The notes under the pieces: model-generated
Databases searched by the model: none
What the model was told of the DNA's origin: nothing
Seen by the model: only the letters and a program-made list of their open reading frames with translations
Shown: piece after piece, positions 1,091 to 64,000 of the stretch
Layout of the letters: every line of letters begins with the position of its first letter
Numbering within the stretch: position 1 is the stretch's first letter
Made by a program: the position numbers and the translations under genes
Assembly (NCBI GenBank): GCA_020137815.1
Contig: CM035354.1
Coordinates: forward strand, 4,650,001 to 4,714,000
Reading direction: 5' to 3'
DNA: 64,000 bases
DNA from: Hormiphora californensis
Taxonomy: Eukaryota > Animalia > Ctenophora

Positions 1091-4000
1091 AAGCGATAAT
1101 GGGACACTAGTTACCATGGTAACAACTAACAATATACGCACACAGAAAACATTTCTTAAGAAATAAAATAAAAAAGAACAATTAAATATAAATGTGAACA
1201 CAGAGAGAAAAAAGAGCTCACCCGTCTAATTCTGCAGTTTCGATGAAGCCCAGGCCGTTTGGAGCTGAAGTACTTATCAGTAACATATCCGCCTGAGAAT
1301 GAGGGTTAAAATAAGTGTGTGGGAACAGTGTATACGATCTCTTTTTTACTGTTATTTGTGCACCCCCTCCATCCCTCTCTTTCTATCTATTCTATGTGTT
1401 TTACACCATGCCAATATTATGAGATCTACCCACAAAATGAGTATTTTTCATCTCATTCCAGAGAATAATTTTGTAATCTCCCAGGCCTTCTACGTTACCC
1501 AAGTACCCGTTACCTACACGTACAGAATATGAACGACCTACGGCCCGAATTATCCCACGAAACATAATACAGATATTAGATATCATTGACCGCAATTCCC
1601 AGGGTCTAACGTGATCACCGCGATGTTCCCCATTTCTCTCTCCTGCTCTTTTGTCTCGCATACCCGCATCTCTCAGTCAGAGGGGGCACACTGCACCTAA
1701 TACAACAACCATCCCTAGTATAATTATACCCTAATACAACAACTGCTACAGTGAGAGGGAGGGGCGTGTGTCCTTTGTTATGCGGACAGCGAGTACAGAC
1801 TGAAACAGCATCCCCCATGTGCTTCATTTGCATTTTCAGCACATATCTCCAGCCCTCTACCACGACACCCTGTATACTGTATTGGTATCTAGCCCTCTCC
1901 CACGACACTCTGTATACAATTGGATCCCTTACCGGTACTGCATCGTTGTTTTTTAACTTCACAAGATCCCCACATTCCACCTTGTACCAGAGATCTTCAG
2001 TCCACTTACCATCCCGCAACACTAACGTCGTACGGTTGTTTATCGACTTGTCACTCTTCCACCGAGCCTAAGAGGAGGGAGTTGTAAATTATTATACTGG
2101 GTAATGGTTATGGGCTCTAAAATATCCTGGTTCTGATCAGTTGATGTCCTTCAAGTTGGGTGAAGTAGGTGAGAACAAGGAAAATATGGTGGCTAGACCG
2201 GTGGTGGGAGGTATTTTATTTCAGTTTTATCATTTCACGGAAGTAGTTCATTTAAGTACAAAATGGAATACACTATGTTGCCAAGGCCCACTCCCTCCCG
2301 ACCCCCATACACCTTATCTCCTCCCCTATCTTATTGCCCTCCCAGGTGTCCCTATAATGTTAGGTCACCATAAACTGGCGGTAACCCAAAAGTGTCCTAT
2401 ATTCGTCTTTATTGCCCAGAGACCTACAAATCTAAAAAGGATTCACTTACGATATCATCGAGGGCATCTTTGGTGGCCGTCACACACAGTACGAATAGAA
2501 GGGGCATTAGGGAGGTATACCATTCCAGAGCAGCGATTTGGGGAATTAACTAACGGGAAAAGAGGGGTTTAGGGATTCATTTAGTTGATTTTTTTTCTTT
2601 TTTCATTTAGTTGAGTTGCAAATTCAATTTATATTGGCCAATCATGCAGTTGACCAATCATGTAACTCACCTGAAGTATAAAGATGACAAGAAAGTACGT
2701 GTTTGCCAGTCGCATGAACTGCTCGGCCAGGTTTACTATTAGAAAGGTGTATACTGAGTACTTGGTCGTGCTGATGTAGTTACTCTGGGAGTGGGGATTG
2801 GAGGAGTTAGGTTGGTCTACCGAACCCTCACAGTGCGGGGTGAGTCACACAAGAGTTAGGTTGTGTTATGATGTGATTCACAGTTATATAGAGGGATTTG
2901 TAACTGTAGAAAATAGAAATACAGCTCTTCAGAAGCATGACGTTTCGAGACACTGCAAAAGACTTTGAAAAGAGAGAGAAAATAAAGAGAGATAAAATAA
3001 AGAGATAGAGTGTGATGGTGTTTAAGACAAAAGATCAGCTCACTGTTGTCATCTACAGCTCAACAAATCGTTTTGATAAAAGTTCGAAACTATGTAAATT
3101 TTCAAACCATTTATTGACCAAATTACTACAAAAGATCACCACCCCCCTCTGCCCCGTCTCTCTGACTCCTTCGCTAAATGAAGTCTCCCCCTTAGAACAA
3201 TTCAAACACCTTTCTTTATCACCCCTTTATAATACCCCCCTCTTTGAATTTTCTCCCCCTCTCATACTACAGTTGCTTTAAATACAGGTGCGAGATGACG
3301 TTATACATAGTCCGTAGAACACTCACAACAGGAGATGTTGCACTATGATATAAGTACGAATTCCTTCGTAGGGTGCACTTAGCGCCAGCAAGGGAGCTGA
3401 TACTTTGTTACCAAAAGAATTCCCCAATTCTCAGTATTATCAGTTTTCTACTTAATTTACTTTTCTATCTCTATTCAATATTCATACATCTACTCACCGA
3501 GAATTTTTGTTCCGTATTAAATGCCCGGTCATTGCTCCGAAGTATCCGAATTCCCTGGGCCTCATCGGACGATTTCAGCCCGAAGCACTCCTTTACCTTG
3601 TACACAATTTCCTCAAACGTGGAGCGTGCTGATAAAAGAGGGGTGGAGGGGTGTTATACAATGATCTGTAATTTATGTGTACTAGTTCTATATAAAGGAT
3701 GATCTATATAAAGGAGTTATCAACATGAGGGGCTGTGAACAGTGAGAGAGAGAGAGCTTCATGAGGGGAGGTTTTGTGTGTGTGCTAAGGACCCCGCTAG
3801 AATTGTGCTGAAGGTCAATAGTTCTACAGCTGTACACCAGTATGATGTCCTTGTGTGGCTCTTTGAGGGTTCAGTATATCAATGGTGTAGCCGCATTGTT
3901 TGTTCAATGTTGTTTATAAGGTGCAAGAAGAATGAGGTAGAAAAATGAAAATTAAGGAGAATAAGAAGGCTAAGCTGTGTTAATTTTGCTTGAGAGAAAA

Positions 4001-19310: not shown

Positions 19311-22300
19311 TTATAAATCGAGTCTCTTCCTTCGGCCCTCGTTAACCGATGAGTTAAGGGGAGGTGGGGTATCGGGTGAGATATTGGCTGGCCCGGCTGT
19401 CAGGTATCCTGCAGCTCCAACTGGCCCAGTGAGGTATCCTGCCGTCTTAGTATCCTGGGGGAGGGAGGATGGGGTTAGGGAAACCATCATTTTCAATATA
19501 ATTTCCATGTCATTGGAACAGCCTTGGTATTTCAGCTATCCCTTCCCGCGTGTAGGACCGGAGAGGGGCCTCTGAGGGGTCGTTACACCACCAATTGCAA
19601 TATGTAACAACCAGGTCACGGAAACATTTCTCCTGGACCATGGTTAGGGAAAACATTTCCTGGTCGCTGTAATAATAAAATAAACACATCATGAGACAAT
19701 CAGATTCTAGACCAATAAAATTACCTCCAAGAAAAGGTCGTGTTTCTGATCCTTGTAGCTGGCCCATACTGGACTGTTGGCCAGTTTAGCTTGTACCTTA
19801 TCTCCACTCATCACATCCATTTGCATTGCTTTCAGGGCTATAACCACCTGAAATGAAACAACTTGTTGAGGGTGGGAGATAACCACGTTGTCCAGAGTTC
19901 CCTGACGTTACTAAGCACACTGTCGGGCGGCCCCTCGCTTCAGCGAGGAAATGATTCTTGGCAGAATGTATTTTACCTGTGCTTTGGCTGACGCGGGTGT
20001 ATGGAAGTCGTCCTCCAGTAGACTCAGCAAATACCCAACTAGGTCCACCTGCAGTGCCTGTGCTACCAGGGTCGGGACATTCTTGGTGAAGGCTTTATGA
20101 CACACCTCAGCACCTACTGCCACCGCCTCGTGCCCCCTCTTCATGGCGGTCATAATGTGTTTTACAGAGTCTGTAGTGTTCGCTAGGCACTTTACACAGC
20201 TGTCATTGGAGGTGATGGAGACAAGGATCTGGAGTGAGAGCCGCCCACATCCTGCCGGGTTACTCGCCATGAACTGGGGGAGGGAGGAGGGGGTTACTAA
20301 GATGGTTACTAGCGTGGTTACTAGGATGGTTACTAGGCTGATTACTAGCGTGGTTACTAGGATGGTTACTTGCTGCAGTTTTCTAGAAAAATATACATCA
20401 ATGTCCAATCCAGACCCTCTTTCCTTGATGATGAGGAGCCTTGTTGAGAGGAGTAGTCCCGGGCATGCCATGGCCTACAAGGTTGAGGATTTTGCTCGAT
20501 CTGTTTATGGAGACAAGCGTGAAGATGTCGATCATATTGGTATTTTTGAGCTTGTCTCTAATGGTGAGGAGGTCCCTGGTTTCTCCGCCAGTGATTTTAA
20601 CACACGTCAGTTTACCAAACCGGTTTTGAGTACCCTGTTGGAGTCTGCCTGCAGCTTGCTATTCAAGCAGTGCCTTCCTTACTTCATGGAAACTAGGAAG
20701 TTACACGACCAGGTTGCTAAGTTGGAGAAGGAAGCAGAAGAAGAAGAGAAGAGTTCAGTTCCCGCCACCTCCACCAGTGCCTTACAGCTGAGTGAAGAGC
20801 TGAATGCTGCCCAGAGGAAGATCATCGCCCTCCAGGAGCAAGTGATTGCGCTGAAGGATGATGTCAGATTGGCTGAGTCCAGTGCAGTCACCAAGACAGT
20901 AGAGAGAGATATGAAGAGCTTTTCTACTGTTCTCTCTCAGAATTGTGCAGTAGCAATGGCACCAAGGAGGATCCAACAAGCTGTGAGGAAAGCTACATCA
21001 AGCTCTGTTCCCGAGGACAGGTCCTGTAACCTGATGATATTTGGGTTGCCAGAGGAGTCATCGAAGGAGACTGTTCAGACCTCTGTCAAAGGAGTTTTGG
21101 ACCAGTTGAATGAGAAGCCAGTTCTGGACAAGTGTGGCAGAGTTGGTAGTCCGACAGCTGGGAAGGTGAGGCCTGTCAGAGTAACCCTCAAATCGAGGGA
21201 AACTCTGATCGCTATTCTGAGGAAGGCGAAGGAACTAAAGGGTTCTACAAAATACTGCAAGGTGTTTCTAGAGCCTGATAGGACCCCCGAGGAAAGATTG
21301 GAAAGGAGAAGAACTCTACAGACTCTGAGTGATTTGAGAGTGTCACATCCTGAGGGACGTTACGTGATAAGACGTGGAGTGATTAAGTGTGTGTAGAACT
21401 CCGGGTGTTGCCTGTTATAGCGGGATTTTCCTGCGTTGGCAAAGCCCTTGATTGGGTGTGTGTAAATATTTGATTTTCATTGTTTTCCGAACCCTTTCTA
21501 AATTGTACCCCGATAAAAAAAAGGTAGTTACTAAGATGGTTACTAAGGTAGTTACTAAGGTGGTTACTAGTGTGGTTACTAGGCTGATTACTAGCGTGGT
21601 TACTAGGCTAATAAGGTGGTAACTAGGATGGTCACTAGGATGGTTACTAATGTGGTTACTAAGGTGGTTACTAGGTAGACGAATACCTGTATAAGTTTAG
21701 GAAGGTGTCCAAGAGATGGAACCTGTTCCGACAGTATCGGTTGAGAGGTCAAAAGAGCGACTAAAGCAGCAGCAACAGTTTCAGCTGTCTCCCCGCCACT
21801 CTTGTGTTCCATGACCGTCTCAAACAGGGCAGACATGAACTCCCGCGGTTTTCTAACCGACCAACTGGGCTGTCTGATAAAGTGCTTGATAAAGACACCC
21901 CCCACCACCAGTTCTCCAGCCATGTCGCTGTATCGGACATTGAAATCGGAGGGTAACCGCCAGTCAACGTCAATATTCTTCAGCTTAAAGAGATAGAAAG
22001 AATGTTAGATTGTGTGGAGCTAAAACCGAGGAAGAGAGAGTGAATTCTGGGTCTAATATGGCACCAGTTAGAGATTCCAGGCATCAGGCCAGTACTAATC
22101 ACTGAACCCAATAGACGATTAGTAAAGATTGTAAATCACCTGGTCCTTGTAATGGAAGGTCATCATTTTCTGGACGGTTGCACACAACTTCTCTCTACTC
22201 TCATCACTCCACACTAGTTCTGGATTCTCGTGTGTGTTGTCGAACATGTGGATGGCTGTCTCAGCACTGTCAGAGAGCGCCTCCACAAAGAGGGATGGTA

Positions 22301-25300
22301 GGAACTTGAGGAGAACTAGGCGGACCTTGGGACCCACCAACTTGTCACTCAACATCTGGGGAATAAGGGGTGGTTAGTGGTTACCATGGTAACACTCCTA
22401 ACAAATAGTTACCATGGTTACAGTACTCTCAACTAATGTACCTTTGACAGAAGAAGGGCGGTATCTTCCCGTATCTCTGGTGTTGAAGAGTTACAGAAGA
22501 GATGGAGAAGGTAAATCAGGGCACCCTTAACCAGCACTTCCTTGATGACTGTGGTGTTCGAAACTAGCGCGTGCAACACCTGTAGTTAAGGGTGGTCATT
22601 TACACAATTCTGTAATGTGGTTATTGTGTGGCGCTATGTGATGGTTCGGTAGATCAAAGTGGTTATTGCAACGGGATTGCAACCCTGCACGAGTATGAAT
22701 TGTTATCAGTTATGTTCTGTGAAAGGGTCGAGCAATGATGGAGAGATTGTGTGTCTGTGTGTGTGACTGAATATCAGTTGTGTCACATTACCTGGAGAAC
22801 TGAGGAGCGAGATCCAGGTACCAACATAAACATAACCAACAGAGATCCCATCACCTGAAATATACATGTCATACACCGTGTGTCATGTGACCACGTACCT
22901 TTGCCAGTGGGCCGCTAGACAGAAACCACGTACCTTTGCCTGTGCGCCGCTAGACAGAAACCACGTACCTTTGCCTGTGCGATACTAGACAGAAACCACG
23001 TACCTTTGCCTGTGCGCCGCTAGACAGAAACCACGTACCTTTGCCTGTGCGATACTAGACAGAAACCACGTACCTTTGCCTGTGCGCCGCTAGACAGAAA
23101 CCACGTACCTTTGCCTGTGCGATACTAGACAGAAACCACGTACCTTTGCCAGTGGGCCGCTAGACAGAAACCACGTACCCTTGCCTGTGCGCCGCTAGAC
23201 AGAAACCACGTACCTTTGCCTGTGCGCCGCTAGACAGAAACCACGTACCTTTGCCTTTGCGGCGCTAGACAGAAACCACGTACCTTTGCCTGTGTGCCGC
23301 TAGACAGAAACCACGTACCTTTGCCTGTGCGCCGCTAGACAGAAACCACGTACTTTCGCCTGTGCGCCGCTAGACAGAAACCACGTACCTTTGCCTGTGC
23401 GCCGCTAGACAGAAACCACGTACCTTTGCCTGTGCGCCGCTAGACAGAAACCACGTACCTTACGCTCCAGTTGCAGATTGGAGGCTGGCGCCAGTTTCTG
23501 GCGCCAGCCTCCAATCTGCAACTGGCGCAAGCTGGGAGAGTCCCTGTGCGCACGAAATCTTCGTTGACTAGCAGGGTTTTCGATGTGATTTGCATCTAGA
23601 GTGGCGCGTGCGGCAGTGTCAGCAGTGTCAGCAGGGGCCTGCACCATTGTACATTGTAACTAACTTCGGTCGCAAAATCTCTAACTGGACCATTTGCCTG
23701 TGCGCCGCTAGACAGAAACCACGTACCTTTGCCTGTGCGCCAAAAGACAGAAACCACGTACCTTTGCCTGTGCGCCGCTAGACAGAAACCACGTACCTTT
23801 GCCTGTGCGCCGCTAGACAGAAACCACGTACCTTTGCCTGTGCGCCGCTAGACAGAAACCACTTACCTTTGCCTGTGTGCCGATAGACAGAAACCACGTA
23901 CCTTTGCCTGTGTGCCGCTAGACAGAAACCACGTACCTTTGCCTGTGCAATGCTCTCCACGCACTGTTGATTCCTTGTAACCAGGACCAGGACATCAAGG
24001 GCTAGTAACTGTATCCCTTCATCATTCATCTTTAACAAGGCAAACAGGAGTTTGAAATACCCGCAACACGTGCCCTCATATCCTGGATTGTGGTTCATAC
24101 AGTTCTTGAGGGCTGATAGGGCGGCATTACTCCGAGACATCCGCTGTAGCTGCTCTGAGGTTATCTGCGAGGAAGATAGAGTGAGGGAGATAGAGGGAGG
24201 GCGATAGAGGGAAATAGATGGGAGAGGAAGATAGAGGGAGGAAGATAGAGGAAGATAGAGGGAGATAGAGGGAGGGAGATAGAGGAAGATAGCTATCAGG
24301 GAGGGAGGGAGGGAGATAGATTGGAGATGGGAGAGGAAGATAGAGGGAGATAGAGGGAGGGACTAGGGAGGTAGAGGGAGATAGAGGGAGGAAGATAGAT
24401 GGAGATAGAGGGAGGAAGATAGAGGGATATAGTGGGAGGGAGATCGTCTTCCCATCCATAGATAGCCATCTGGCATCTTAGTTAAGTGATTAATATTTTA
24501 GTGATCTGACATCCGATTAGTACTCCTTTGTTTATCGGTGAAGTGAATTGAGTTACACGAACGAAGAAAAAGACATTTTATTTTTTGTTTAGAATTAAAC
24601 ATTTTGAATTGAAATTATAATTAGGATCTTCTCTACTAGTCTATCCACTATGTTCAATGTTCATGCTCTTCTACGCAGAGAATAGGGGTTGACTGCATCA
24701 AAAATTCCACTCCACCATCTAGCAGTTTAGCCACTTTACCATCTAGCAGTTTAGCCACTCCACCATCTAGCAGTTTAGCCACTCCACCATCTAGCAGTTT
24801 AGCCACTCCACCATCTAGCAGTTTAGCCACTCCACCATCTAGCAGTTTAGCCACTCCACCTTCTAGCAGTTTAGCCACTCCACCTTCTAGCAGTTTAGCC
24901 ACTCCACCATCTAGCAGTTTAGCCACTCCACCTTCTAGCAGTTTAGCCACTCCACCTTCTAGCAGTTTAGCCACTCCACCTTCTAGCAGTTTAGCCACTC
25001 CACCATCTAGCAGTTTAGCCACTCCACCATCTAGTAGTTTAGCCACTCCACCATCTAGCAGTGTAGATACATAGCATCAGAATTTGAGGGGACATGATCA
25101 TCAGCCAGTGTGAATTCACACTCGGAGAGGTTTTGGTAATATCCAGGACACCAGAAGTAAGAGAGGACAACGCTGATCTCATGCTCGAGGAGGTACCCAC
25201 AGGACAACTTAATGTTGGCGTTATCCTGGATCTGGCCAGTTCTCCGGTAAACGGGATACCTGTTCTTGTACCCAGTCATGTAGCACATAGAGGATCGGGT

Positions 25301-27075
25301 GTAGGAGCTTCCAGTGTAGGGGACCAATCCAAACCTATATTCTCCTGTTCTCTTGTTTTCAAGAAACACCACGACAGAACCATATCGACCACCAACCCTC
25401 GCATCCCTCTCATCGTGATGTCCAGCCTCGTTGTAAGCCATGGTCAGGTTAGTGAGCACCCACTCTGGACCCCTATCATTGGTACAGGACAGCCACAGAG
25501 CATCGTCAGCATCACAATCTCCGCTGGCAACGGATGCAGAACAAGCTCCAAGTTCTGTCGAGTTAGCGGTACAGTTGAGATCTTCCGCGATCACAGATAT
25601 ATCCCGATCTCGCATTGTGTCACAGTCGAGCTTGTCACTGCTGTTAACGTTCTTGGCGGCGTTGTAATCCACCAAATAGTCGTATCCAGCCTCGTGACAG
25701 AGAAGCGTGGCAGTCCTTGCGTCTACTCCGTCAGCACAGACTAGACCGCTGGTCTGGGTGCCATTCAGCACGACAGTACCGTTAGAAGATATGGCACCGT
25801 TCACCTTCTGCAACTCAACATCCATGCCTTGTAAATCCATCCCATCATCCTCCGTACTACAATGGAGCACTAATCCCTCACTGTAAGAGCAGTCGTGGTG
25901 GCCAATGGGGTTGTAGGTACAGTTATGCAGTTCTCGGGCACCAGGGATGCACTGCAAGTTATCCAAAGCGAACACCATGCCAAATCGATCCCTCCAACTG
26001 TTATAAGATATTCGATTATAGGAAAGCCCATTGTTCGACCATGATACCATGCTATTGAATCCAGCCGCTCGGCAGAGAAAATCGGCAGTGTTGTCATTCA
26101 TTCTATCGTCACATACCATTCCTGCTGTAAGGGTACCATTATCTTCTTGGACCCATACAATCAGAGTCCCCCACGAGACTCCAATTTGATCCTCTGAGTC
26201 AGTTAGTGTAGCATATGATATGTATGTATACGCGTGGGCGTGTCCTCCAAGGAGAAGAAGTGCTGCCGTAGTAGTCAGTAGTTGAGTGAACATGGCTTCA
26301 ATCGTTCCGGTAAATTAAACTAGCTTTGCAGTGACCTTTTATACTGCTAATAGGACGGTATAACGCTCTTCTCTCACCCGTGTGAGTGCCATCTGTTGGA
26401 TGGAAATTCTTTGTTGTTCGGGACATGTGGACTAACGCAGCTTATCGTTAATAGAGCCGATGGGAGATGCCTCCTCACTAAACTATTTATCTGCCCTCTA
26501 CTGGATGCAAGACTCAAACAAAGATTGATCTTTTCTCTATAGCATGTAAAACAAAAGGCCGGCACCATGAAAAACTAACTTCACAAAAGGTCATCACCTG
26601 ATATGCCCTTCCCTCTAGTCGAGCCCTTTGTTTTTATAGTAGTGCAGGTGATCACGTTGCTCACTCACATATTCATAAAGGACTCCCAGCATGCTGCAGC
26701 AGCTCTATAATATACGTGGATTATACGAGTTGGAGTATAGATGAGCTATTCGACTATAAGCTATTCGACTATAATAGTGGTGCTATTGATCAGCTGATGA
26801 TCATACGAGTAGCTCCGAAATTATCATACTACATGATTGTAACCTCACACAGATCTCCTTTGACTCGGTTCGGAGGGGGCAGTATTTCGGAAGACAATTT
26901 GGAGAGTGAAATATATTGGGGGAGTAGAGATATAGGCGGTGTCTACTGCCCAGTCAATTTTTCTTAGTTTTTAGTCACTAGATCACTCACCTGGCTTCCA
27001 TTTCCCATGCTTAGAGCGGAGTGAAGGTATTGTGCTTGATCTCCCAAGAAACTTAACAAATCCTGAAAATTTTAT

Positions 27076-52289: not shown

Positions 52290-52638
52290 TTTAAACAGCC
52301 ACGAGGATTAGTTTTGTGTCTTGTTTCTTCAAAAATTAGCCAAAAATCGGTATCCAGTTTTTAAATTTTGAAGTTTCGGGCCGTTTTTTCGAAACTTCAA
52401 ATTTTGAAATTTGGATTGAATTCCAATTAGCGCCGCGCATTTAAATTTTTCTACGCTGCGTGTTGCGCCGCGCGATGTAAAAATCAAAAACCTGAAGCAA
52501 GCTGAGTTGCGATTTTTGTTTTCAAAGCAAATTTGTCAAAGACGAACCTTTTCTTTGCCCCAAACCCTTCAAAAACAAGCGGTTGCCGGTTTTCTTCAGT
52601 TTTTCTAATTTTGAGGCTTTAGGGAATGCGGAGGAATA

Positions 52639-54062
52639 GGGATCCCTAAAAAAGTTCAGTATTTACACAGAGTTTACACCAGTTAAGCCACTTCATCACT
52701 TTCATCAACTACAACGTAAAACTATTTATTGAGCAGGAAGATGAATCTGATGTAACAGCCCCAAAGGGCAGGAAGACGAAACGCTGTTAATGTCGGAAAC
52801 GAAGTACGAGGGTGATAACCCTATGATAAAACAATTGAAAGAGACAGTAGATAACTTTGTTTCTGAAGTTTACCGGTTGAATTCGACGGATGATCCCAAC
52901 ACGATGAGTATCACCCTAGATCAGTTTAATCAATGTTATAAACAGATCCAAACTGCACCTGATTCAACGTTAACCAACGACAAATTAGCTTCGCCTTGCA
53001 AGCACTGGGGTTCGTACTTTAGACATTGTCTCAAGGACCGAACTACGAGTGAAATGATTAAGGCTACTTCGCGTATTTTTCTCTCCAGTATGAAACTTGC
53101 CCGAGCAACAATGAACAATTTTAAAACTGTTATCAGTGTGGAAAACCTCGAGAAGCAGCTGCGTGAATGCAAAGAAGAACTTGACCGTCATCGGGTTAGC
53201 GTGATCGAGCTTCAGCAAACGGTTATCAACCAACAGAACCAACAACTCAGTACAGTGACAGCATCGGTGCAGAAGGTGAAAGCCTACTCTACTGTTCTTG
53301 CACAGAATTGTGCTGCAACCTCCCCCAAATTGGGAAAACTGCCACCTTTACATCACCCTACTCCCGTCCAACAGCCCGGAAGAGAGAAGAACCTGGTTGT
53401 GTTTGGTCTTCCAGAAACAACGGATAGAGTAGCTAAAACTACTTTGGACGAACTGTTTGAGGAATTGCAAGAGAAACCAAAGGTGACAACGACGAAACGC
53501 ATCGGGGAAAGAAACGAGAAGCGCCCTAGACCGCTCTTAGTATCACTGGAGAAGAGATCGACTCTCCTGGCGCTGCTCAAAAAGGCACGAAACCTCAAGG
53601 ACTCCAAACAGTTTTCGGCTGTTTATCTCTCTCCGGACCTAACGCCCTCTGAACTGAAGGAGCAAAAAGCTCTCAGGTCCACTTTGAAACGGTTACGATT
53701 AGAAGATCCAGACGGCTGTTATTTCATCCGCAATAATGTTATCCAAGTGGGATAGTTCCCTACAAATTAACTATTTATTTATGCTCTTGTTTTGTATCTG
53801 TACCACTTTTGAAAGTGAGGAGTGTGTAGAGCGTTGGCTAGTAGTGCATGCTCCAATATTTTACACTATAAAGTGGTATATATAAATGAATATATTACAT
53901 TTACATTTACATTTACATTTCAGTTTTTCCCACGGTAGCGTGGGAAGAAAAATTTCGAAATCTGCGCTGTGATTGGCTAAAATTTTTCTTCGTCAGAAAT
54001 TTCAGCCAATCACAGCACACGCTGTAAACGCTGTGTAAATACTGAACTTTTTTAGGGATCCC
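52639..54062. mobile_element. TA-flanked TIR element that encloses an ORF1-only retroelement
   Basis: GGGATCCCTAAAAAAGTTCAGTATTTACACAG(a/c)GTTTACA at 52639 is inverted at about 54023-54062, with TA on both sides. Confidence 0.8.
52790..53755 (+). mobile_element. LINE ORF1-like ORF (321 aa) of a second ORF1-only retroelement, about 52680-53920
   Basis: Coiled coil, then REKNLVVFGLPE...KRIG...RPRPLLVSL...VYLSPDLTPSE. Homologous to 20401-21396. The 3' end has a (TTACAT)n tail at about 53894-53920, and no ORF2 follows. Confidence 0.78.
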
Positions 54063-54255
54063 TATAGTGTGTAAGCGAATTTTCAATATTCAAACGTTTA
54101 GCGGCTATATTTTACTAAATTACCGTCGTCGCCTTTCGCCTGTATTGTAACTTTCCTACTTCCTAGAGAGACTGACACCATTTATGTTTTGTAATTAAGT
54201 TATTTTATCAAGTTCTTATCCAGTATCCTTAATCACAACTTTCAACCTTTAGATC

Positions 54256-55077
54256 ATGTTAAGGTTTGCAGGAATCCAGCTAAAGCCCGGTGCCGATAAG
54301 CTGAAAAACCTTGCCCAAGCATCTGAGCTGGCTGTGAAAGCTGTTGCAAACGGTGCAAATTTAATCTCATTTCCAGAGTGTTTTAATTCCCCCTACGGGA
54401 ACCAATTCTTTGCAGAATACGCAGAGCCCATCCCTGATGGCCAAACCTCAAAGCACCTGAGTCAGCTTGCCAAAGAACAAAAAGTTCATATAATTGGAGG
54501 ATCAATCCCTGAGAAAGATGGTTCTAGTTTGTTTAACACCTCCCTCGTGTTTAACCCTGCAGGAGAGATCATTGCAAAACACCGGAAAATGCATCTTTTC
54601 GACATTGACATCCCAGGGAAGATTAGATTCCAGGAATCAGAAACTCTGTCTCCGGGAAACTCCGTTACAACGTTTGATTGTAATGGGTTTACAGTTGGGG
54701 TCGCCATCTGCTATGATATTAGATTCCCAGAGCTAGCACAACTGATGAGACTGAAAGGTGCTGATTTTCTGGTTTATCCCGGAGCATTCAACATGACTAC
54801 CGGACCTGTATATTTCGAGCTCCTGACCCGAGCTCGAGCGGTGGATAACCAGGTTTATTGTGCCAGTATTGCCCCCGCTACCGACCAAGAGGCAGGGTAT
54901 GTGTCCTGGGGTCACTCTGTCGTTGTAGCACCCACTGGGCAGGTGGTGGATTCTGCGGGACACGAGGAGAAGACAATATACTGTGATGTGAAGAAAGAGG
55001 ATATCCAGGCTGTCAGGGAGGGGATTCCTACTTGGAAGCAGAAGAGAGATGATGTTTATAAACTTACTGAAGCTTAG
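54256..55077 (+). CDS. NIT2: Omega-amidase NIT2 (nitrilase family), intronless
   Basis: FPECFNSPYG, KHRKMHLFDIDIPGKIRFQES, ICYDIRFPE, YPGAFNMTTGP, RARAVDNQVY: Glu-Lys-Cys triad present. Confidence 0.95.
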   Translation: MLRFAGIQLKPGADKLKNLAQASELAVKAVANGANLISFPECFNSPYGNQFFAEYAEPIPDGQTSKHLSQLAKEQKVHIIGGSIPEKDGSSLFNTSLVFNPAGEIIAKHRKMHLFDIDIPGKIRFQESETLSPGNSVTTFDCNGFTVGVAICYDIRFPELAQLMRLKGADFLVYPGAFNMTTGPVYFELLTRARAVDNQVYCASIAPATDQEAGYVSWGHSVVVAPTGQVVDSAGHEEKTIYCDVKKEDIQAVREGIPTWKQKRDDVYKLTEA

Positions 55078-55246
55078 TTGGGTTTTTGTCCATGTCTTTT
55101 ACTGTGAGTGTTTTTTGTGTAAAATTTGTTATTCAGTTCTTTTCTTTTTAAAGTTGTCTCCTCTTTAACTGCCTTGTTATTGATATTTTAACCCCTGCCT
55201 GTATCTTCAACACTTCCATCTGTAACTCCTCAATTTCCACTTCTAG

Positions 55247-56242
55247 ATGTTGCTGGCTCGGTCGTTGCGCCTGACCACCAACTACCATTTCATAAGATGC
55301 CTCCAAACACCTTCCTCCGAACTTCTTATTGATACTGCCGCTATATCTGATACTACCGCTATATCCGATACTGCCACTGTAGTGGGTTCCATATCCGATA
55401 GTGCTGCAGTCAGCACTCTGTCCGGAACCTCACCCCTTGGGGCTGTAGCTGAGATGTCAGGTGATGTGATAGCAGGTGTGACGACCCTCCCAACTGGAGG
55501 CGCTCTAAACATTGTCAATCACTACCAACACCTGTTGGACATGGTCCAGACTACAACTGGGCTGCCCTGGTGGGCGGTACTCTTTGGGACTGGGGTCGCT
55601 CTCAGGACCAGTCAGATAGCGATTGATGTCGGGTGTTTTAAGTACAACTATAAGTTGGAACCATTATTCGACAGAACTGATGAGATACGTAATGAGATAA
55701 TGAAGGCTAAGGCTAAGGGTGATCAAGCGAAGGTAATGGTTAAAAAGAAGGAGCTGCAGTTGTTCAGAAAACAAAATAAGATGACCTTGAAGGATAATCC
55801 TTTGATTCGGTTCGTGCTTACAAAATTTGCTGTTATAATATTGAATTTCGCCGCGGTTGGAGGTCTCGCTGTGATGCCATACCAGCCCTTCCTAGACTGC
55901 TCACTTCTCTGGCTTCCCAACCTGACTGTCCCAGATCCAACATTCATCCTTCCCATTATGAACACTGCTTTGATTGGTTATAAAATTGGTGTAGAGTCAG
56001 CAGGGTTTGGTGTAGAGGCAGCAGGGTTTTTTGGGAACCCCAAAGTGATATGTGGTCTTGTCATGGTAACTGCAGTAACCCAGGTTCTCTTTCCCTCCGG
56101 TCTGGTGGTCTACTGGTTTGCATCTAATTTGGCTGATGCCCTAATCTTCATGCCATTGTTGAAGAACGATGGATTCAGGAGAGCGGTGGGCCTGCCCACT
56201 ATAGAGGAACGAGCTGAGATAATGAAGAACAGGAAGAAATGA
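55247..56242 (+). CDS. OXA1L: Oxa1/YidC-family mitochondrial inner-membrane insertase, copy 1
   Basis: Transit-like N-terminus, TGLPWWAVL...LR, LWLPNLTVPDPTFILPI, FPSGLVVYWFASN. COX18 cannot be fully excluded. Confidence 0.85.
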   Translation: MLLARSLRLTTNYHFIRCLQTPSSELLIDTAAISDTTAISDTATVVGSISDSAAVSTLSGTSPLGAVAEMSGDVIAGVTTLPTGGALNIVNHYQHLLDMVQTTTGLPWWAVLFGTGVALRTSQIAIDVGCFKYNYKLEPLFDRTDEIRNEIMKAKAKGDQAKVMVKKKELQLFRKQNKMTLKDNPLIRFVLTKFAVIILNFAAVGGLAVMPYQPFLDCSLLWLPNLTVPDPTFILPIMNTALIGYKIGVESAGFGVEAAGFFGNPKVICGLVMVTAVTQVLFPSGLVVYWFASNLADALIFMPLLKNDGFRRAVGLPTIEERAEIMKNRKK

Positions 56243-56510
56243 TAATTTGTCAAAAAAAGTCAAGTGGTGTGTTTCTCGCAATCACTGCGTAAGCCGGCGG
56301 TGCTTATCTCCGATTCAAGCTCTAAGCCACTCCGTACTATGGTACTAAACTAACAGTAAGGGGGCCAGCCCTACGTGCAGTTTTGTATTAGATCTAATTT
56401 ATTGCTTTTTTATGGAACGTTTTACTTTGAACATTTTGTTTTCTTCTGATTGTTAATACCTCTAACTCTCTTACCCCTAAATTCACTCCGTCGCCCCCCC
56501 CCCCCTTATA

Positions 56511-59500
56511 CAGGGTGTTCATATGGGATCTTTACAAGCGTTGGGCTACACCCAGAAAAAAGTTGACAAGATTAGGTCATGAAACTTCATACTTGGCCTA
56601 TTATATACCCTCATTCAAGGTTCCTGGGGGTTTGGAGCTCTAGCACCCCCAGAAGTGTGTTTTTGGCATCAAAACTACCAGAAGGAATTTTTTTGTTGGT
56701 GCTGAGACTTTGCTAAAACAATTTTTGGTATTTTCTATGTCAATTTCTCTGTATATTGCCCTCAGAAGGATGATCCTGTATGCTGCTTTTGTGCTGGCAC
56801 ACATCAGACGAAGGATTGTAGAGCGAAGAAGAACAATGAAACAGGCAAGATGAAGTGTGTGAATTGTGAAGTTGGAGGATCACGAGAGGACAAGAAGTAT
56901 GCGAAGACCCACACGGCTTCAAGTATGTGGTGCCCTTCGTACATTAACGAGCGAGCACGGCTAATGGAGAGGACTTCAGGTGTGAGCAAAGAGAAAAAAA
57001 ACATGTACTGGACGAGGACCAAAGAGGAACTACTCAGGAAAAGACTTGGAAGATTGGGACACTAAATGTTCGCTCTCTTGTTAATAAAACTGGAGGTGTT
57101 ATTTCTCATCTGGAAGAAGAGGATTGTGATATCTGTCTCGTACAGGAAACCTTTTTGAAGTCTACGGATACTGGGAAACTCCAGGAGATTAGGGATAATG
57201 GATGGGATATTTTATCATGTCCACGAGGAGACAGAGGAGGTGGAGGAATAGGAATTCTTTTTCGGGACGGTATAGTCCTTCGACAGTGCCCAGTGAAGAC
57301 AAAGTTTAAGTCTTTTCAAGTGCAGGAGGTTCTCATCAGTGACAGAGATCAACCAAAGAGACTCTGTAATGTTTATCGTCCACCATACACAACTAAGTCA
57401 AGACTCACAGAGGCTACATTCCTATCTGAGTTCGGAGACTATCTTTCAGAACTTGTTATGAAGCAAGGTACTCCAATTATAGCAGGGGATCTGAACTTTC
57501 AGGTGCAGGACAAGAACAACTTCTACTCGAGGAAACTATTGGAGCTTCTAGATTCATTTGACCTTCAGCAAAGAGTACCACTATTGCCTACTCACCAACT
57601 TGGTGGAACCTTAGACCTGGTGATAACTACAAGGGAAACCAATCTAGGAGATTTAACAATTTGTCCTAATGGTACTACTTCGGACCACTTCCTGGTACAG
57701 TTTGGGCTTGAAGTGAGACAGGACCTGTCAAACTCTTGTATGCGGAAATCAATGTTTCGAGAATACATGGACTACAAGTCAATGGACAAGGAAGGATTCA
57801 GAGAGGACCTCCAGAAAGCGGAATTTGAACCAGGCCGGGATCCAGAGGAGAGTATTGTAAACTTCTATCGTTGGTTGGAAAGTGTAGTGGAAAGGCGAGT
57901 TCCGAGGAAACGGGTGAGGACAGGGAAAAAGTTTAAACCGTGGAGAGATGAGGAACTAAGAGGAATACTACGTAAGAGGAGGAGTGCGGAACGATACTGG
58001 AGGAAGCATGGAACTGAGGAAGCGAAACGGAGATTCAATGATTTGAAGAAGCTCTATGGAAACATGGACAAGGAAAAGAGAGCAGCTTTTGTTAAAGAGG
58101 ACTTGGATGCGGCAAAAGGGGACCCGAAGAAGCTACAAAGAAAGTTACAGAAACTCCTGGGAAAAGCGGAAACTATTCTTCCTGAGACTACCAACAACAA
58201 GAACCTGGCTGATGATTTTTCAAAGTTCTTTAGTTCAAAGGTGACCAAAATTCGGACCCAAGTCAATGAGGAGCAGCAGCAGGCTGGCGATTTTGTGGAA
58301 TCTGGAAAATCCTGTCATACAACATGGAATGAATTCAAAGAGATATCTGAGGAGGAACTTGTTTCATTAGTGAAATCGATGTCCAGCAAGCACTGTGACC
58401 TGGACCCGTTGCCCACTTGGGTGGTAAAGGAGTGTATAAGTGATCTGGCTCCTGCATTAACATCAATAGTCAATCAGTCTCTACATCAGTCTTCGGTCGC
58501 AGAATCTCTCCAGGAGGCACTTGTCTTTCCTACCATCAAGAATATGTATGGAGATCGTGAAGCTCTCAGCAACTATCGTCCTGTTTCGAACATCCCATTT
58601 CTGTCTAAGCTTCTTGAGAAGGTAGTTCTCACGCAACTCAATGACTACCTGGATCGCAACTCTCTTTTGGGCAAACATCAGTCTGGCTATCGTGTTGGTC
58701 ACAGTTGTGAAACGCTATTGGCAAGCATGTTCGATGACATTCTAGGGGAAATGGATAAAGGAAACGTAGTAGCTCTTATCTGTCTAGATATGAGTGCTGC
58801 TTTTGATACGGTTGACCATGGAAAGTTGTTGGAGGTGTTGCAGAAACGGTTTGGAGTGGATGGTGAACCTCTCCGATGGTTTAAAAGCTATTTGAGTTCC
58901 AGATCTTTTAGAGTTTCGGTCGGTGATTGCCTTTCGGAAACCCTTGCTTTACTTTGTGGAGTCCCTCAAGGGTCCCTCCTTGGTCCTATTTTGTTCCTAC
59001 TCTACATCGAGGCTGTACAAGATATTGTGGAGCCATATGGACTCCGGATAAAGTTATATGCAGATGATTCCCAGCTCTACGTGAGTCTGGTTCCTACGGA
59101 TGCTGCTGGCTGGGTTGAGGCAAAGGTGGATATTGAGGAGTGTCTGGCGAAGGTGAAGAGGTGGATGGTAGGGCAGTGGTTGAAGTGTAATGAGGCCAAA
59201 ACGGAATTCATCCTGCTTGGAAAGCGCAGTTCTCTAAGCAAAGTCTCTTTTGATCCAGTTATTAACTTTGGAGGAACGGAAATCTCCCCCAGTGAATGTA
59301 GTGGAACAGATGGTAAAACCCTGGGAATTCTCTTGGATCATAACCTTGGCCTTGAACGACAGGTTAACAATGTGAGGAAACAGTGTGGACTGATGTTACG
59401 AAACCTTTGGCAACTGCACAGGTGTTTTGATATCCCAACAAAGATAATGTTGGTCAAACAGTTGATTTTATCGAGGATAGACTACAGTAACATTCTGTAT

Positions 59501-60739
59501 TGTGGACTTCCTGGTCGAGTTCTCAGTGGGCTCCAGAAGCTTCTCAATGCCTGTGTTCGTTTTGTATTTAACCTCCACGGACACCAGGACAACTACATGG
59601 AGTATTTCAGGCAATGTCATATTTTACCGATCTCCTACAGGTTGGACTTCAAAGCATGTTTGATTGCCTACAAAATAGTCAATGGAACAGCCCCGTGTTA
59701 TCTCCAGGATTTGGTGCCACGTGATGAGACTTGGGGAACCTCTAGGACAACGAGGATGACTAATGTTCCGGATCCCTATAGGTTAAAACATCCAAAGATG
59801 ACCAGTATCAATGCCAACTCTAAGTTGAGACGTAGGAGGTTATCAGTATTCCTGCCCTCTGTCTGGAATGAGCTTCCTCTTGAGCTCAGGTCAATCCCCA
59901 ATGTGGATACTTTCAAAACCCGGCTGAAAACACATCTCTTCGTTGGTGCATTTGGAGTGGGTGATGGGGAACCCATGGCTGAGTTGTAATGTTTGTTGTA
60001 GTTGTGGGGCCTGCGGGCAATCAGTGTCATCCTCTCTCTAGCCATGTTATTAATTCATTACCTAGTATCCTTTTTTCGAGCAGGTGTGAGTATAGTGTGT
60101 TTTAATTTATATCTACAGGATTATGGGACCAGTTATTCCCTCAGTTTTATAAGTCAAGTTTATTTAGTCGTCTATATATTGTTTTTCAACCAGAGCTGTT
60201 CGAGTGTGTCATATAAGTAGTCGAGGATATACCGCTCTGATGATTCGGCGGAACATCGTCAATATTTTGACATGTCTCTGTCGGGTATGGGCGGTATATA
60301 AGCGCGGAATATTATTATTATTATTATTATTAATTCCAAAGTTTCATGATGATTGCTTGGATGTGTGGTTCAGTCACCAAGTTCCAAATAAACTGGCTGG
60401 AAAGGCCCAAAAACAGCAAAAATATATATTTTAGAGTTTTTTAGACACTTTTTTCGAAATTTCTACTTCATAAAACACATCCAATCATCACGAAACTTTG
60501 GAATTGACATAGAAAATACCCAAAAAAACATTCTAGCAATGTCTCAGCGCCAGCAAAAATTCCTTCTGGTAGTTTTGATGCCAAAAACACACTTCCGGGG
60601 GTGCTAGAGCTCCAAAACCCCCAGGAACTTTGAATGAGAGTATAGAATAGTCCAAGTATGAAGTTTCATGACCTAATCTTGTCAACTTTTTTCTGGGTGT
60701 AGCCCAACGCTTGTAAAGATCCCATATATGAACACCCTG
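56511..60739. mobile_element. Tc1/mariner-type foldback MITE (CAGGGTG ends) interrupted by a LINE
   Basis: CAGGGTGTTCATATGGGATC at 56511 is inverted at 60739. An uninterrupted copy lies at 62585-63216. Confidence 0.85.
56746..60331 (+). mobile_element. 5'-truncated non-LTR retrotransposon (CR1/L2-group-like): zinc-knuckle ORF1 remnant plus intact APE-RT ORF2
   Basis: ORF1 tail CCFCAGTHQTKDC and CVNC...H...C. ORF2 is open from 56948 to 59989 with LNVRS, QET, GDLNF, TLDLV, SDH, YRPVSN, DMSAAFDTVDH, GVPQGS, YADD, FKTRLKTHLF. (ATT)n tail at 60311-60331 and AATT duplicated at both ends. Confidence 0.93.
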
Positions 60740-60780
60740 TGTACCTCTAATTCTCCTATAATACCCCTAACTTCACTCCG

Positions 60781-61039
60781 GCTCCTGACCCGGGCCCGAG
60801 CGGTGGATAACCAGGTTTATTGTGCCAGTATTGCCCCAGCTACCGACCAAGAGGCAGGGTATGTGTCCTGGGGTCACTCTGTCGTTGTAGCACCCACTGG
60901 GCAGGTGGTGGATTCTGCGGGACACGAGGAGAAGACAATATACTGTGATGTAAAGAAAGAGGATATCCAGGCTGTCAGGGAGGGGATTCCTACTTGGAAG
61001 CAGAAGAGAGATGATGTTTATAAACTTACTGAAGATTAG
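60781..61039 (+). pseudogene. NIT2: Duplicated 3' third of NIT2
   Basis: Near-identical to 54819-55077 and lacks the 5' catalytic part. Confidence 0.9.
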
Positions 61040-61208
61040 TTGGGTTTTTGTGCATGTCTTTTACTGTGAGTGTTTTTTGTGTAAAATTTGTTATTCAGTT
61101 CTTTTCTTTTTAAAGTTGTCTCCTCTTTAACTGCCTTGTTATTGATATTTTAACCCCTGCCTGTATCTTCAACACTTCCATCTGTAACTCCTCAATTTCC
61201 ACTTCTAG

Positions 61209-62315
61209 ATGTTGCTGGCTCGGTCGTTGCGCCTGACCACCAACTACCATTTCATAAGATGCCTCCAAACACCTTCCTCCGAACTTCTTATTGATACTGC
61301 CGCTATATCTGATACTACCGCTATATCCGATACTGCCACTGTAGTGGGTTCCATAACCGATAGTGCTGCAGTCAGCACTCTGTCCGGGACCTCACCCCTT
61401 GGGGCTGTAGCTGAGATGTCAGGTGATGTGATAGCAGGTGTGACGACCCTCCCAACTGGAGGCGCTCTAAACATTGTCAATCACTACCAACACCTGTTGG
61501 ACATGGTCCAGACTACAACTGGGCTGCCCTGGTGGGCGGTACTCTTGGGGACTGGGGTCGCTCTCAGGACCAGTCTGTTACCGATTAAAGTCAGGGGTTT
61601 AAAGCAGTTCGTGAAGTGGGAACCATTCATCTCCAGACGTAATGAGATAGGGAAGGAGATAATTACGGCTGAGGATAAGGGTGATCAAGCGATGGCAATG
61701 GTTAAATGGAAGAAGCTGGAGTTGCTCGAAAAACAAAATAAGATGGCCTGGAAGGATAATCCTTTGACTTGGTGCGTGCCTAACGTCGCTGTTATAATAT
61801 TAAATTTCACCGCGATTGGAGGTCTCGCTGTGATGCCATACCAGCCCTTCCTGGACTGCTCACTTCTCTGGCTTCCCAACCTGACTGTCCCAGATCCAAC
61901 ATTCATCCTTCCCATTATGAACACTGCTTTGATTGGTTATAAATATATAAATATACATGTAGTTATGAAAATTGGTGTACACTTGAGGTACACCAAGGGA
62001 GCAGCCCGGAACCCCAAAGTGAAATGTGGTCTTGTCATGGTAACTGCAGTAATCCAGGCTCTCTTTCCCTCCGGTCTGGTATTCTACTGGTTTGCATCTA
62101 ATTTGGCTGAAGCCCTAATCATCGTGCCATTGTTGAGTAACGATGGATTCAGGAGAGCGGTGGGCCTGCCCACTATTATAGAGGAACGAGCTAAGATGAT
62201 GAAGAGCAGGCCTAATCTAAATGATCAAGCGAAGAAGGGGCTTAAGACGAGGAAGAAATTGGTGACGCGGCCACCCCCCCTACACAGGGGATCTCATCAC
62301 CAAAGGAAGAAATGA
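61209..62315 (+). CDS. OXA1L: Oxa1/YidC-family insertase, copy 2 (longer basic C-terminal tail)
   Basis: Intact 368-aa ORF; the first 122 codons are almost identical to copy 1. Confidence 0.85.
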   Translation: MLLARSLRLTTNYHFIRCLQTPSSELLIDTAAISDTTAISDTATVVGSITDSAAVSTLSGTSPLGAVAEMSGDVIAGVTTLPTGGALNIVNHYQHLLDMVQTTTGLPWWAVLLGTGVALRTSLLPIKVRGLKQFVKWEPFISRRNEIGKEIITAEDKGDQAMAMVKWKKLELLEKQNKMAWKDNPLTWCVPNVAVIILNFTAIGGLAVMPYQPFLDCSLLWLPNLTVPDPTFILPIMNTALIGYKYINIHVVMKIGVHLRYTKGAARNPKVKCGLVMVTAVIQALFPSGLVFYWFASNLAEALIIVPLLSNDGFRRAVGLPTIIEERAKMMKSRPNLNDQAKKGLKTRKKLVTRPPPLHRGSHHQRKK

Positions 62316-62584
62316 TAGTTTTGTCAAAAAAAGTCAAGTGGTGGGTCTCTCGCAATCACTGCGTAAGCCGGCGGTGCTTATCTCCGATTCAAGCTCTAAG
62401 CCACTCCGTACCGTGGTACTAAACTAACAGTATGGGGGCCAGCCCTACGTGCAGTTTTTATTAGATCTAATTTATTGCTTTTTTATGGAACGTTTTACTT
62501 TGAACATTTTGTTTTCTTCTGATTGTTAATACCTCTAACTCTCTTACCCCTAAATTCACTCCGTCGCCCCCCCCCCCCCTTATA

Positions 62585-63216
62585 CAGGGTGTTCATATGG
62601 GATCTTTACAAGCGTTGGGCTTCACCCAGAAAATATTTGACTAGATTAGGTCATGAAACTTCATACTTGGACTATTCTATACCCTCATTCAAGGTTCCTG
62701 GGGTTTTTGGAGCTCTAGCACCCCCGGAAGTGTGTTTTTGGCATCAAAACTACCAGAAGGAATTTTTTGCTGGTGCTGAGACTTTGCTAAAAAATTTTTA
62801 GGTATTTTCTATATTAATTCCAAAGTTTCATGATGATTGGATGTGTGGTTCAGTCACCAAGTTCCAAATAAACTGGCTGGAAAGGCCCAAAAACAGCAAA
62901 AATCGATATTTTAGAGTTTTTTAGACACTTTTTTCGAAATTTCTACTTCATAAACCACATCTAATCATCACGAAACTTTGGAAATGACATAGAAAATACC
63001 CAAAAAACATTCTAGCAAAGTCTCAGCGCCAGCAAAAATTCCTTCTGGTAGTTTTGATGCCAAAAACAGACTTCCGGGGGTGCTAGAGCTCCAAAACCCC
63101 CAGGAACCTTGCATGAGGGTATAGAATAGTCCAAGTATGAAGTTTCATGACCTAATCTTGTCAACTTTTTTCTGGGTGAAGCCCAACGCTTGTAAAGATC
63201 CCATAAGAACACCCTG
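62585..63216. mobile_element. Uninterrupted copy of the CAGGGTG foldback MITE
   Basis: TA-flanked, with inverted arms of about 260 bp. Confidence 0.88.
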
Positions 63217-63257
63217 TATACATCTAATTCTCCTATAATACCCCTAACTTCACTCCG

Positions 63258-63360
63258 GCTCCTGACCCGGACCCGAGCGGTGGATAACCAGGCTGTCAGG
63301 GAGGGGATTCCTACTTGGAAGCAGAAGAGAGATGATGTTTATAAACTTACTGAAGCTTAG
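63258..63360 (+). pseudogene. NIT2: Second NIT2 3' fragment with an internal deletion
   Basis: GTGGATAACCAGG is joined directly to CTGTCAGGGAGG. The deletion is bounded by CCAGG microhomology. Confidence 0.88.
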
Positions 63361-63529
63361 TTGGGTTTTTGTCCATGTCTTTTACTGTGAGTGTTTTTTG
63401 TGTAAAATTTGTTATTCAGTTCTTTTCTTTTTAAAGTTGTCTCCTCTTTAACTGCCTTGTTATTGATATTTTAACCCCTGCCTGTATCTTCAACACTTCC
63501 ATCTGTAACTCCTCAATTTCCACTTCTAG

Positions 63530-64000
63530 ATGTTGCTGGCTCGGTCGTTGCGCCTGACCACCAACTACCATTTCATAAGATGCCTCCAAACACCTTCCTC
63601 CGAACTTCTTATTGATACTGCCGCTATATCTGATACTACCGCTATATCCGATACTGCCACTGTAGTGGGTTCCATAACCGATAGTGCTGCAGTCAGCACT
63701 CTGTCCGGGACCTCACCCCTTGGGGCTGTAGCTGAGATGTCAGGTGATGTGATAGCAGGTGTGACGACTCTCCCAACTGGAGGCGCTCTAAACATTGTCA
63801 ATCACTACCAACACCTGTTGGACATGGTCCAGACTACAACTGGGCTGCCCTGGTGGGCGGTACTCTTGGGGACTGGGGTCGCTCTCAGGACCAGCCTGAT
63901 AGCGTTTAATGTCGGGTATGATAAGCAGTACATGAAGTGGGTTCCACACATCCCCAGACAGAGTGAGATATCTGAGGAGATGATGAAGGCTAAGGCTAAG
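63530..64000 (+). CDS. OXA1L: Oxa1/YidC-family insertase, copy 3, truncated by the window end
   Basis: Same N-terminus as copies 1 and 2, and open to the end of the window (...RTSLIAFNVGYDKQYMKWVPHIPRQSEISEEMMKAKAK). Confidence 0.82.
   Translation, partial: MLLARSLRLTTNYHFIRCLQTPSSELLIDTAAISDTTAISDTATVVGSITDSAAVSTLSGTSPLGAVAEMSGDVIAGVTTLPTGGALNIVNHYQHLLDMVQTTTGLPWWAVLLGTGVALRTSLIAFNVGYDKQYMKWVPHIPRQSEISEEMMKAKAK

Follow-up and report, generated by a model that had tools for sequence, protein, structure and literature searches.

In a 64,000-nucleotide stretch of the genome of the ctenophore Hormiphora californensis (GenBank: GCA_020137815.1, contig CM035354.1, positions 4,650,001 to 4,714,000 of the forward strand; hereafter the window) three intronless open reading frames (ORFs) of 331, 368 and more than 157 amino acids lie in tandem at the window end and encode proteins of the OXA1 type. 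Positive selection on this expressed insertase array is well supported. On balance we favour the reading that the tandem array is of recent origin and that positive selection, acting on a surface predicted to face the matrix and capture clients, has made its OXA1-type copies diverge, probably because they track one or more membrane proteins that are encoded in the mitochondrial DNA (mtDNA) and keep changing.

The repeated unit starts inside the gene NIT2 (at 54819, 60781 and 63258) and continues through a 169-nt spacer and the OXA1-like ORF to the 3' flank of that ORF and a miniature inverted-repeat transposable element (MITE) of 640 bp. Because these flanks were duplicated together with the ORFs, the copies are DNA-level tandem duplicates, and an origin as retrocopies is ruled out. 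The spacers differ pairwise at 1, 0 and 1 of 169 positions (units 1 and 2 at one), and the number of differing codons within codons 1-122 is three for copies 1 and 2, five for copies 1 and 3 and two for copies 2 and 3. Between units 1 and 2 there are 5 differences in 258 positions of the NIT2 fragment, 6 in 263 of the 3' flank (the 3' untranslated region) and 14 in 238 and 12 in 403 of the two MITE halves. Overall, the flanks of the units are 1-6% apart.

Codons 123-194 form a hypervariable block. Between copies 1 and 2, 37 of its 71 aligned codons differ without a single synonymous difference, and all 34 conserved residues are encoded by the identical codon. Copy 3 carries a third variant, which differs in 18 of 35 codons from copy 1 and in 21 of 35 from copy 2, again with no synonymous difference in either comparison. 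The 48 nucleotide changes between copies 1 and 2 are distributed as 22, 16 and 10 over the three codon positions. Neutral simulation with the same 48 changes gave 5.8-7.7 expected synonymous-only codons and a probability of 0.0001-0.002 of finding none; for the two short comparisons with copy 3 this probability was 0.01-0.04. The block limits for these simulations were set after inspection of the data, and the whole-gene omega test given below is free of chosen limits. By the Nei-Gojobori method, nonsynonymous divergence (dN) is 0.327 and synonymous divergence (dS) 0.063 in the block, where multi-hit codons imply at most three hidden synonymous steps, compared to 0.031 and 0.022 in the 239 codons outside it. 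A second variable patch follows the GYK motif (codons 246-263 of copy 1), has indels and is unalignable, and the C-terminal tails differ, copy 2 having a longer, basic tail (net +13) and copy 1 a short one (+3). The sequence-only reading of the window had reported the near-identical upstream DNA and first 122 codons, about 35 of 69 differing codons that all change the amino acid, the third variant, the second patch and the unlike tails, and the recount agrees with it on each of these points.

Likelihood tests were run with our own code for the GY94 model on 310 codons of the three sequences and a star tree, leaving aside the second variable patch and the tail. The whole-gene M0 omega (dN/dS) was 3.7 (P=6e-5) with no region preselected; by region, omega was 13 in the block and about 1.1 outside. 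Comparing M2a with M1a gave a likelihood-ratio statistic of 63.7; M2a assigns about 11% of sites to a class with omega ~32, and ten sites have a posterior above 0.95 (codons 130, 131, 134, 135, 140, 142, 144, 148, 167 and 174). A model of an old block, with its own branch lengths and omega <=1 (9 parameters), was 17.8 log-likelihood units worse than a model of shared age with selection (6 parameters). The earlier suggestion of diversification by positive selection is thereby upheld, as the synonymous divergence of the block does not match the nonsynonymous. The same reading had proposed that the flanks are either recently duplicated or homogenised; recent duplication stands, and gene conversion is not needed because the synonymous sites of the block (dS 0.06) are of roughly the same age as the flanks.

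We built an AlphaFold2 model of codons 80-331 of copy 1 (52-row alignment, pLDDT 90), which resembles human OXA1L (TMq 0.74; Z 17.9, rmsd 3.3 over 235 residues) and B. halodurans YidC (Z 16.8). It predicts an Oxa1/YidC fold with a core of five transmembrane (TM) helices, a helical hairpin after TM1 and an intact groove arginine. In the model, the hypervariable block begins three residues past this invariant arginine and spans lower TM1, helices CH1 and CH2 of the hairpin and the start of TM2, in support of its earlier assignment to late TM1 and the matrix coiled coil; the second variable patch is the TM3-TM4 loop. Sites were assigned to the matrix or the intermembrane space (IMS) by a partition of our own, which combines the helices of the model with the known topology (N-out, C-in), and amino acid differences then fall at 46 of 123 sites on the matrix side versus 6 of 104 on the IMS side (P=4e-9). 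Within codons 123-156 the variable sites follow a 100-degree periodicity (reached in 0 of 10000 shuffles), and the unchanged helix face consists of V128, K132, K136, P139, R143, E146, I147, E150 and A154. Most of the block changes (31 of 37) are non-conservative (BLOSUM62 <=0). In an alignment of fungal-dominated OXA1 homologues, variable and invariant sites are equally conserved (P=0.50). For YidC, the available text of two papers (PMC8648943, PMC8920935) describes the hairpin as the first substrate-binding site, which then passes the substrate to the groove. Our literature search found no paper on contacts between the hairpin and the mitoribosome.

Contigs from four of the 15 listed sequencing runs (X2 and X5, both DNA; X7 and X8) were compared with unit 1, runs X9-X13 with their small shares being left aside. 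In X2 the NIT2 contig has a depth of 51 and the shared 5' part of the unit 174-216 (3.4-4.2 times as much), and the block is represented by that of copy 1 without difference (depth 45) and by two other variants (76 and 46). X5, which comes from a second study and carries a different NIT2 allele, has depths of 227 for NIT2, 1482-3278 for the shared 5' part (6.5-14 times) and ~190 and 907 for its block variants. Across codons 133-149, 15 of the 16 differences listed in the contigs match copy 3. The ratios of ~4 in X2 and 6.5-14 in X5 suggest copy-number variation between samples, contig depth not being a copy count. Both the unit junction and the multi-copy depth are present in public contigs, those of the second study included.

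Expression is seen in the oligo-dT metatranscriptome X7, in which a contig starts at 55245 and has ten extra letters. Joined to the genomic AG, these are identical to the final 12 bases of the spliced leader of ctenophores, as given in the available text of PMC8527503; the window itself does not contain this 12-mer. The contig thus documents trans-splicing of the mRNA of one or another copy, with the leader joined just before the ATG. The contigs support the array as real and expressed, against the two outcomes (assembly artefacts or unexpressed copies) that would have undone the earlier interpretation. Two weak hints come from X8: its contigs cover the junction between MITE and NIT2 together with the spacer, as read-through RNA or DNA would, and one contig of depth 2 would mean that there is yet another in-frame variant where TM2 starts.

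The best solved relative of the copies is human OXA1L (E 1.8e-17), to which they are ~26% identical and which a profile of the clade described below matches with E 1.7e-56. The curated cut-off of Pfam PF02096 is not reached (25.5-25.9 bits versus 35), which we attribute to the divergence of these family members. Two hallmarks of the YidC/Oxa1/Alb3 family were found, namely the groove arginine R120 of TM1 in all three copies and the aromatic pair YW (289-290) of TM5 in copies 1 and 2. Furthermore, the N-terminus is basic, with no acidic residue in the first 24 positions; the proteins are predicted to be imported and placed in the inner mitochondrial membrane, where they would act as insertases. 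The distance from the PWW motif to the loop is 111-112 residues in the window copies, 109-110 in OXA1 (two of four proteins measurable) and 130-133 in COX18 (four of four), a hairpin length that argues for OXA1 and on which COX18 identity was rejected. With the clade profile, three of the four named OXA1 proteins outscore all four COX18. A quick tree was built from 77 rows, namely 60 out of the 150 top matches, 15 others and two window copies; its branches are long, and a careful tree search was unfinished. In it the window copies lie outside the COX18 clade, their long branch leaving from a base that lacks resolution. An Atlas feature search did not separate OXA1 from COX18. Taken together, the OXA1-type identity first proposed is supported over COX18.

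Word-index protein searches returned no close relative, though the database includes ctenophore proteins; these first misses reflect sensitivity limits. A HMMER-wide search detected eight proteins (P0190-P0197; ENA, JGI and Logan) with 29-36% identity to the window copies, and two scans of JGI metagenome contigs yielded nothing. The eight form one clade with the window copies in the quick tree (SH-aLRT 100), share their hairpin length and are probably the OXA1s of other ctenophores. Compared with their cluster mates at >=90% identity (16 comparisons, one 73-aa fragment left out), they have 0-5 differences in the 67-71 block-equivalent positions versus 0-9 in 122-162 positions in the rest of the core. 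These pairs show no block excess, and any paralogs no more alike than copies 1 and 2 (81%) would be missed under clustering at 90%. This clade is extremely divergent, with 29-54% core identity between most subgroups, and several members have long coiled-coil tails.

Under the favoured reading, units would arise by tandem duplication or unequal crossing-over. Each duplicate carries its own trans-splice acceptor, by which it could be released from a NIT2 read-through transcript, and new copies could be expressed at once without a promoter of their own. Once imported, the proteins would occupy the inner membrane such that the hairpin projects into the matrix, where hairpin and groove mouth may bind nascent clients as in YidC, and the variants would differ in the client that is bound or inserted. 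That client might be a polymorphic or antagonistic mtDNA-encoded protein, for example from a ctenophore unidentified reading frame (URF) or a selfish mitotype; according to the available text of PMC6991124, the mtDNA of ctenophores shows high variability inside species and codes for predicted transmembrane URFs that are lineage-specific. Since variants coexist and the apparent copy number differs between samples, the selection appears to be diversifying, which fits a moving partner better than one-way compensation. A bolder version, which we put forward by analogy and hold to be rather unlikely, is that the array could be an animal nuclear restorer or suppressor locus, in which a core insertase was amplified and diversified to intercept selfish mitochondrial proteins or refuse their insertion. 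It would parallel RF-Oma1 of beet and be the first molecularly identified candidate of its kind in animals. Ctenophores are mostly simultaneous hermaphrodites.

Several points weigh against the favoured reading. Beyond the hypervariable block, with the second patch excluded, the matrix bias is not significant (8/49 versus 5/68, P=0.15), and neither is the periodicity within CH2 (P=0.14). The likelihood tests rest on three sequences and ignore recombination, and the omega of about 1.1 outside the block is based on few changes, so that purifying selection is not demonstrated there. Two groove glutamines conserved in the family (about codons 193 in TM2 and 301 in TM5) are replaced, and insertase activity is therefore not assured; the TM2 glutamine is also missing from the closest relatives, P0190-P0197, and its loss is thus clade-wide. 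Contig depth is a poor measure of copy number, X2 is possibly the source of the window itself and the samples may be pools. Moreover, the block of copy 2 was not confirmed in the contigs compared, whereas its long tail is present in X5, X7 and X8, and the RNA evidence consists of a few low-depth metatranscriptome contigs in which the expressed copy cannot be distinguished.

The same selection and structure data would also fit a division of labour, in which each copy was selected for a different fixed set of clients, either mtDNA-encoded or relocated such as nuclear ATP6/ATP9, without ongoing conflict. The differing tails agree with this, as do, in the text available, the trypanosome paralogs that serve different complexes (10.64898/2026.06.30.735475) and the relocation of ctenophore ATP6 and ATP9 to the nucleus (10.64898/2026.08.04.742770). 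However, the trypanosome paralogs are ancient and barely alike while the copies here are 1-6% apart at neutral sites, and fixed roles do not predict more variants than the window holds or a differing apparent copy number, which makes this alternative unlikely. Escape from, or recognition of, an antagonist that reaches the matrix from outside the mitochondria (an RNA virus that replicates in the matrix or the product of a plasmid, a protein imported from a pathogen, or a toxin) would account for change confined to the matrix side. Tandem, copy-variable genes with surface-restricted diversifying selection are a classic host-parasite signature. Such an agent would first meet the IMS face when coming from the cytosol, yet this face is almost invariant (6/104), and none turned up, no direct search having been made for one; we regard this explanation as quite improbable.

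That there was no selection for difference is largely refuted, and we give it little credence in any of its forms, be it old, diverged blocks between gene-converted flanks, relaxed constraint on redundant copies, a different reading frame or the misplacement of alleles as tandem copies in the assembly. Relaxed constraint could appeal to the omega near 1.1 outside the block, and tandem assembly of alleles to the high heterozygosity of ctenophore genomes (available text of PMC8527503). In opposition stand the 0 of 34 conserved residues with a synonymous change, the poorer fit of the old-block model despite its additional parameters, the helical-face pattern of the variable sites and the unit junction with multi-copy depth in public contigs, those of a second study among them. 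As to another frame, the short block of copy 3 has no stop in one of its reverse frames, but in copies 1 and 2 all five other frames contain stops, and the changes are skewed over codon positions. Base-targeted hypermutation of the kind seen in diversity-generating retroelements (DGRs) was rejected as well, as all six substitution types are present and A, C, G and T are variable at 13/34, 7/16, 10/29 and 13/26 sites. The neighbouring reverse transcriptase was discarded as a DGR-type source, being part of a long interspersed nuclear element (LINE)-type insertion within the MITE.

Compared with human OXA1L and yeast Oxa1 (Pfam: PF02096), the window copies have the same five-TM fold, a matrix hairpin of the same length, the groove arginine, the TM5 motif YW..SN and, in copy 2, a basic tail, whereas they differ in being tandem and multi-copy, in the positive selection on hairpin and groove mouth and in the replaced TM2 and TM5 glutamines. 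Animal COX18 belongs to the same superfamily and was among the top word-index matches, but its hairpin region is ~20 residues longer (130-133 versus 107-112) and it forms its own clade. Oxa1 had been described as single-copy, which is the usual state but not the rule: icefish have two oxa1l copies, according to the part of the source available, and Trypanosoma brucei has three paralogs. As far as the accessible text describes them (10.64898/2026.06.30.735475), TbOxa1-1, TbOxa1-2 and TbOxa1-3 resemble the array in exceeding two paralogs, in their different tails and in their divergent mitochondria; they are ancient, of low similarity and with fixed roles, whereas the array is recent, with near-identical flanks and coexisting variants.

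The closest precedent in function is found in plants. In the available text on sugar beet (PMC7154926, PMC6894571), Rf1 (RF-Oma1) consists of clustered copies, variable in number, of a gene for quality control at the inner membrane; its product binds the mtDNA-encoded sterility protein preSATP6, and a conserved bvOma1 exists apart from the cluster. Like Rf1 and the plant RFL-PPR clusters, the array is a housekeeping gene of the mitochondrial inner membrane turned into a tandem cluster with many variants, variable in copy number in beet and differing in apparent copy number between X2 and X5 here. Unlike it, Rf1 belongs to another protein family and kingdom, and binding of the sterility protein and restoration are established in beet but hypothetical for the array. 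In the hermaphrodite snail Physa, the single animal case known, cytoplasmic male sterility occurs together with restorers, the genes for which are defined genetically in the available text of 10.1101/2024.08.08.607164.

Within the literature on OXA1 duplication, positive selection, paralogues and specificity, and ctenophore OXA1, we found no comparable array, most subscription papers and supplements lying outside the scope of this search. OXA1 is core machinery with one or two copies in most eukaryotes, and here it forms an expressed, recent array with immune-gene-like selection on the predicted client-binding hairpin. Its natural hairpin variants could reveal whether client specificity resides in the hairpin of Oxa1/YidC proteins. 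The array also offers a concrete nuclear locus for the study of mitonuclear co-evolution or conflict in an animal lineage with extremely divergent mtDNA, and if a changing mitochondrial partner drives the copies, they would become a candidate animal counterpart of the plant fertility-restorer gene clusters.

Table 1. Features of the OXA1-type array and its duplicated unit (positions within the window).
Feature	Position	Strand	Remarks
NIT2 omega-amidase gene, intact, intronless	54256..55077	+	Pfam CN_hydrolase E 1.8e-61; directly upstream of copy 1; 3' end inside duplicated unit
Spacer, 169 nt, pyrimidine-rich	55078..55246	+	ends in trans-splice acceptor AG abutting ATG; common to all three units
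OXA1-like copy 1, 331 aa	55247..56242	+	presequence-like N-terminus, five TM helices, short tail; human OXA1L E 1.8e-17
Groove arginine R120 codon	55604..55606	+	kept in all three copies, three codons ahead of variable block; invariant in homologue alignments
Hypervariable block 1, copy 1, codons 123-194	55613..55828	+	lower TM1, CH1-CH2 hairpin, start of TM2
Variable block 2, copy 1	55982..56035	+	end of TM3 and matrix loop; indels versus copy 2
Hairpin-like MITE, unit 1	56507..60743	.	split by LINE insertion (about 56746-60327)
NIT2 3' fragment, duplicated, opening unit 2	60781..61039	+	98% identical
OXA1-like copy 2, 368 aa	61209..62315	+	long basic C-terminal tail, net +13
Hypervariable block 1, copy 2	61575..61787	+	comparison of copies
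Variable block 2, copy 2	61941..62009	+	comparison of copies
MITE, unit 2, uninterrupted, 640 bp	62581..63220	.	inverted arms 187 nt, 96% complementary
NIT2 fragment, unit 3	63258..63360	+	internal deletion of ~180 nt
OXA1-like copy 3, first 157 codons	63530..64000	+	runs off window end; block variant at 63896-64000, same variant in DNA runs X2 and X5

The best named match of NIT2 is the NIT2 of Bolinopsis microptera (69%), which together with the spliced leader supports a ctenophore host. NIT2 and copy 1 (54256-55246) lie on the same strand, 169 nt apart, with a pyrimidine-rich AG acceptor before both ATGs, an operon-like arrangement resolved by trans-splicing. The LINE-type element inside the unit 1 MITE, which has an endonuclease/reverse transcriptase ORF at 57458-59989, is absent from unit 2. 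In the 3' flank of unit 1, positions 56270-56380 have very high contig depth with many loose ends, which suggests that the unit contains one more short dispersed repeat. Part of the copy 2 tail (62180-62255) resembles the CH1-CH2 turn of copy 1 (55681-55753), a likeness matched by 3 of 2000 codon shuffles at the DNA level but not clear at the protein level (179 of 2000); as a weak lead, it could be an old internal duplication or a sign that the block was templated from the tail.

Two further ORFs were noted elsewhere in the window. At 52636-54065, an ORF for a 321-aa coiled-coil protein (52790-53755) lies between 43-nt inverted repeats that are 98% complementary, and a similar-looking ORF is found at 20101-21396; the former presumably resembles LINE ORF1-type proteins, but with terminal inverted repeats. 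On the minus strand at 25055-26314, an intronless 419-aa ORF with cysteine-rich repeats, which we take to be scavenger-receptor-like, is apparently nested among the exons of a large gene.

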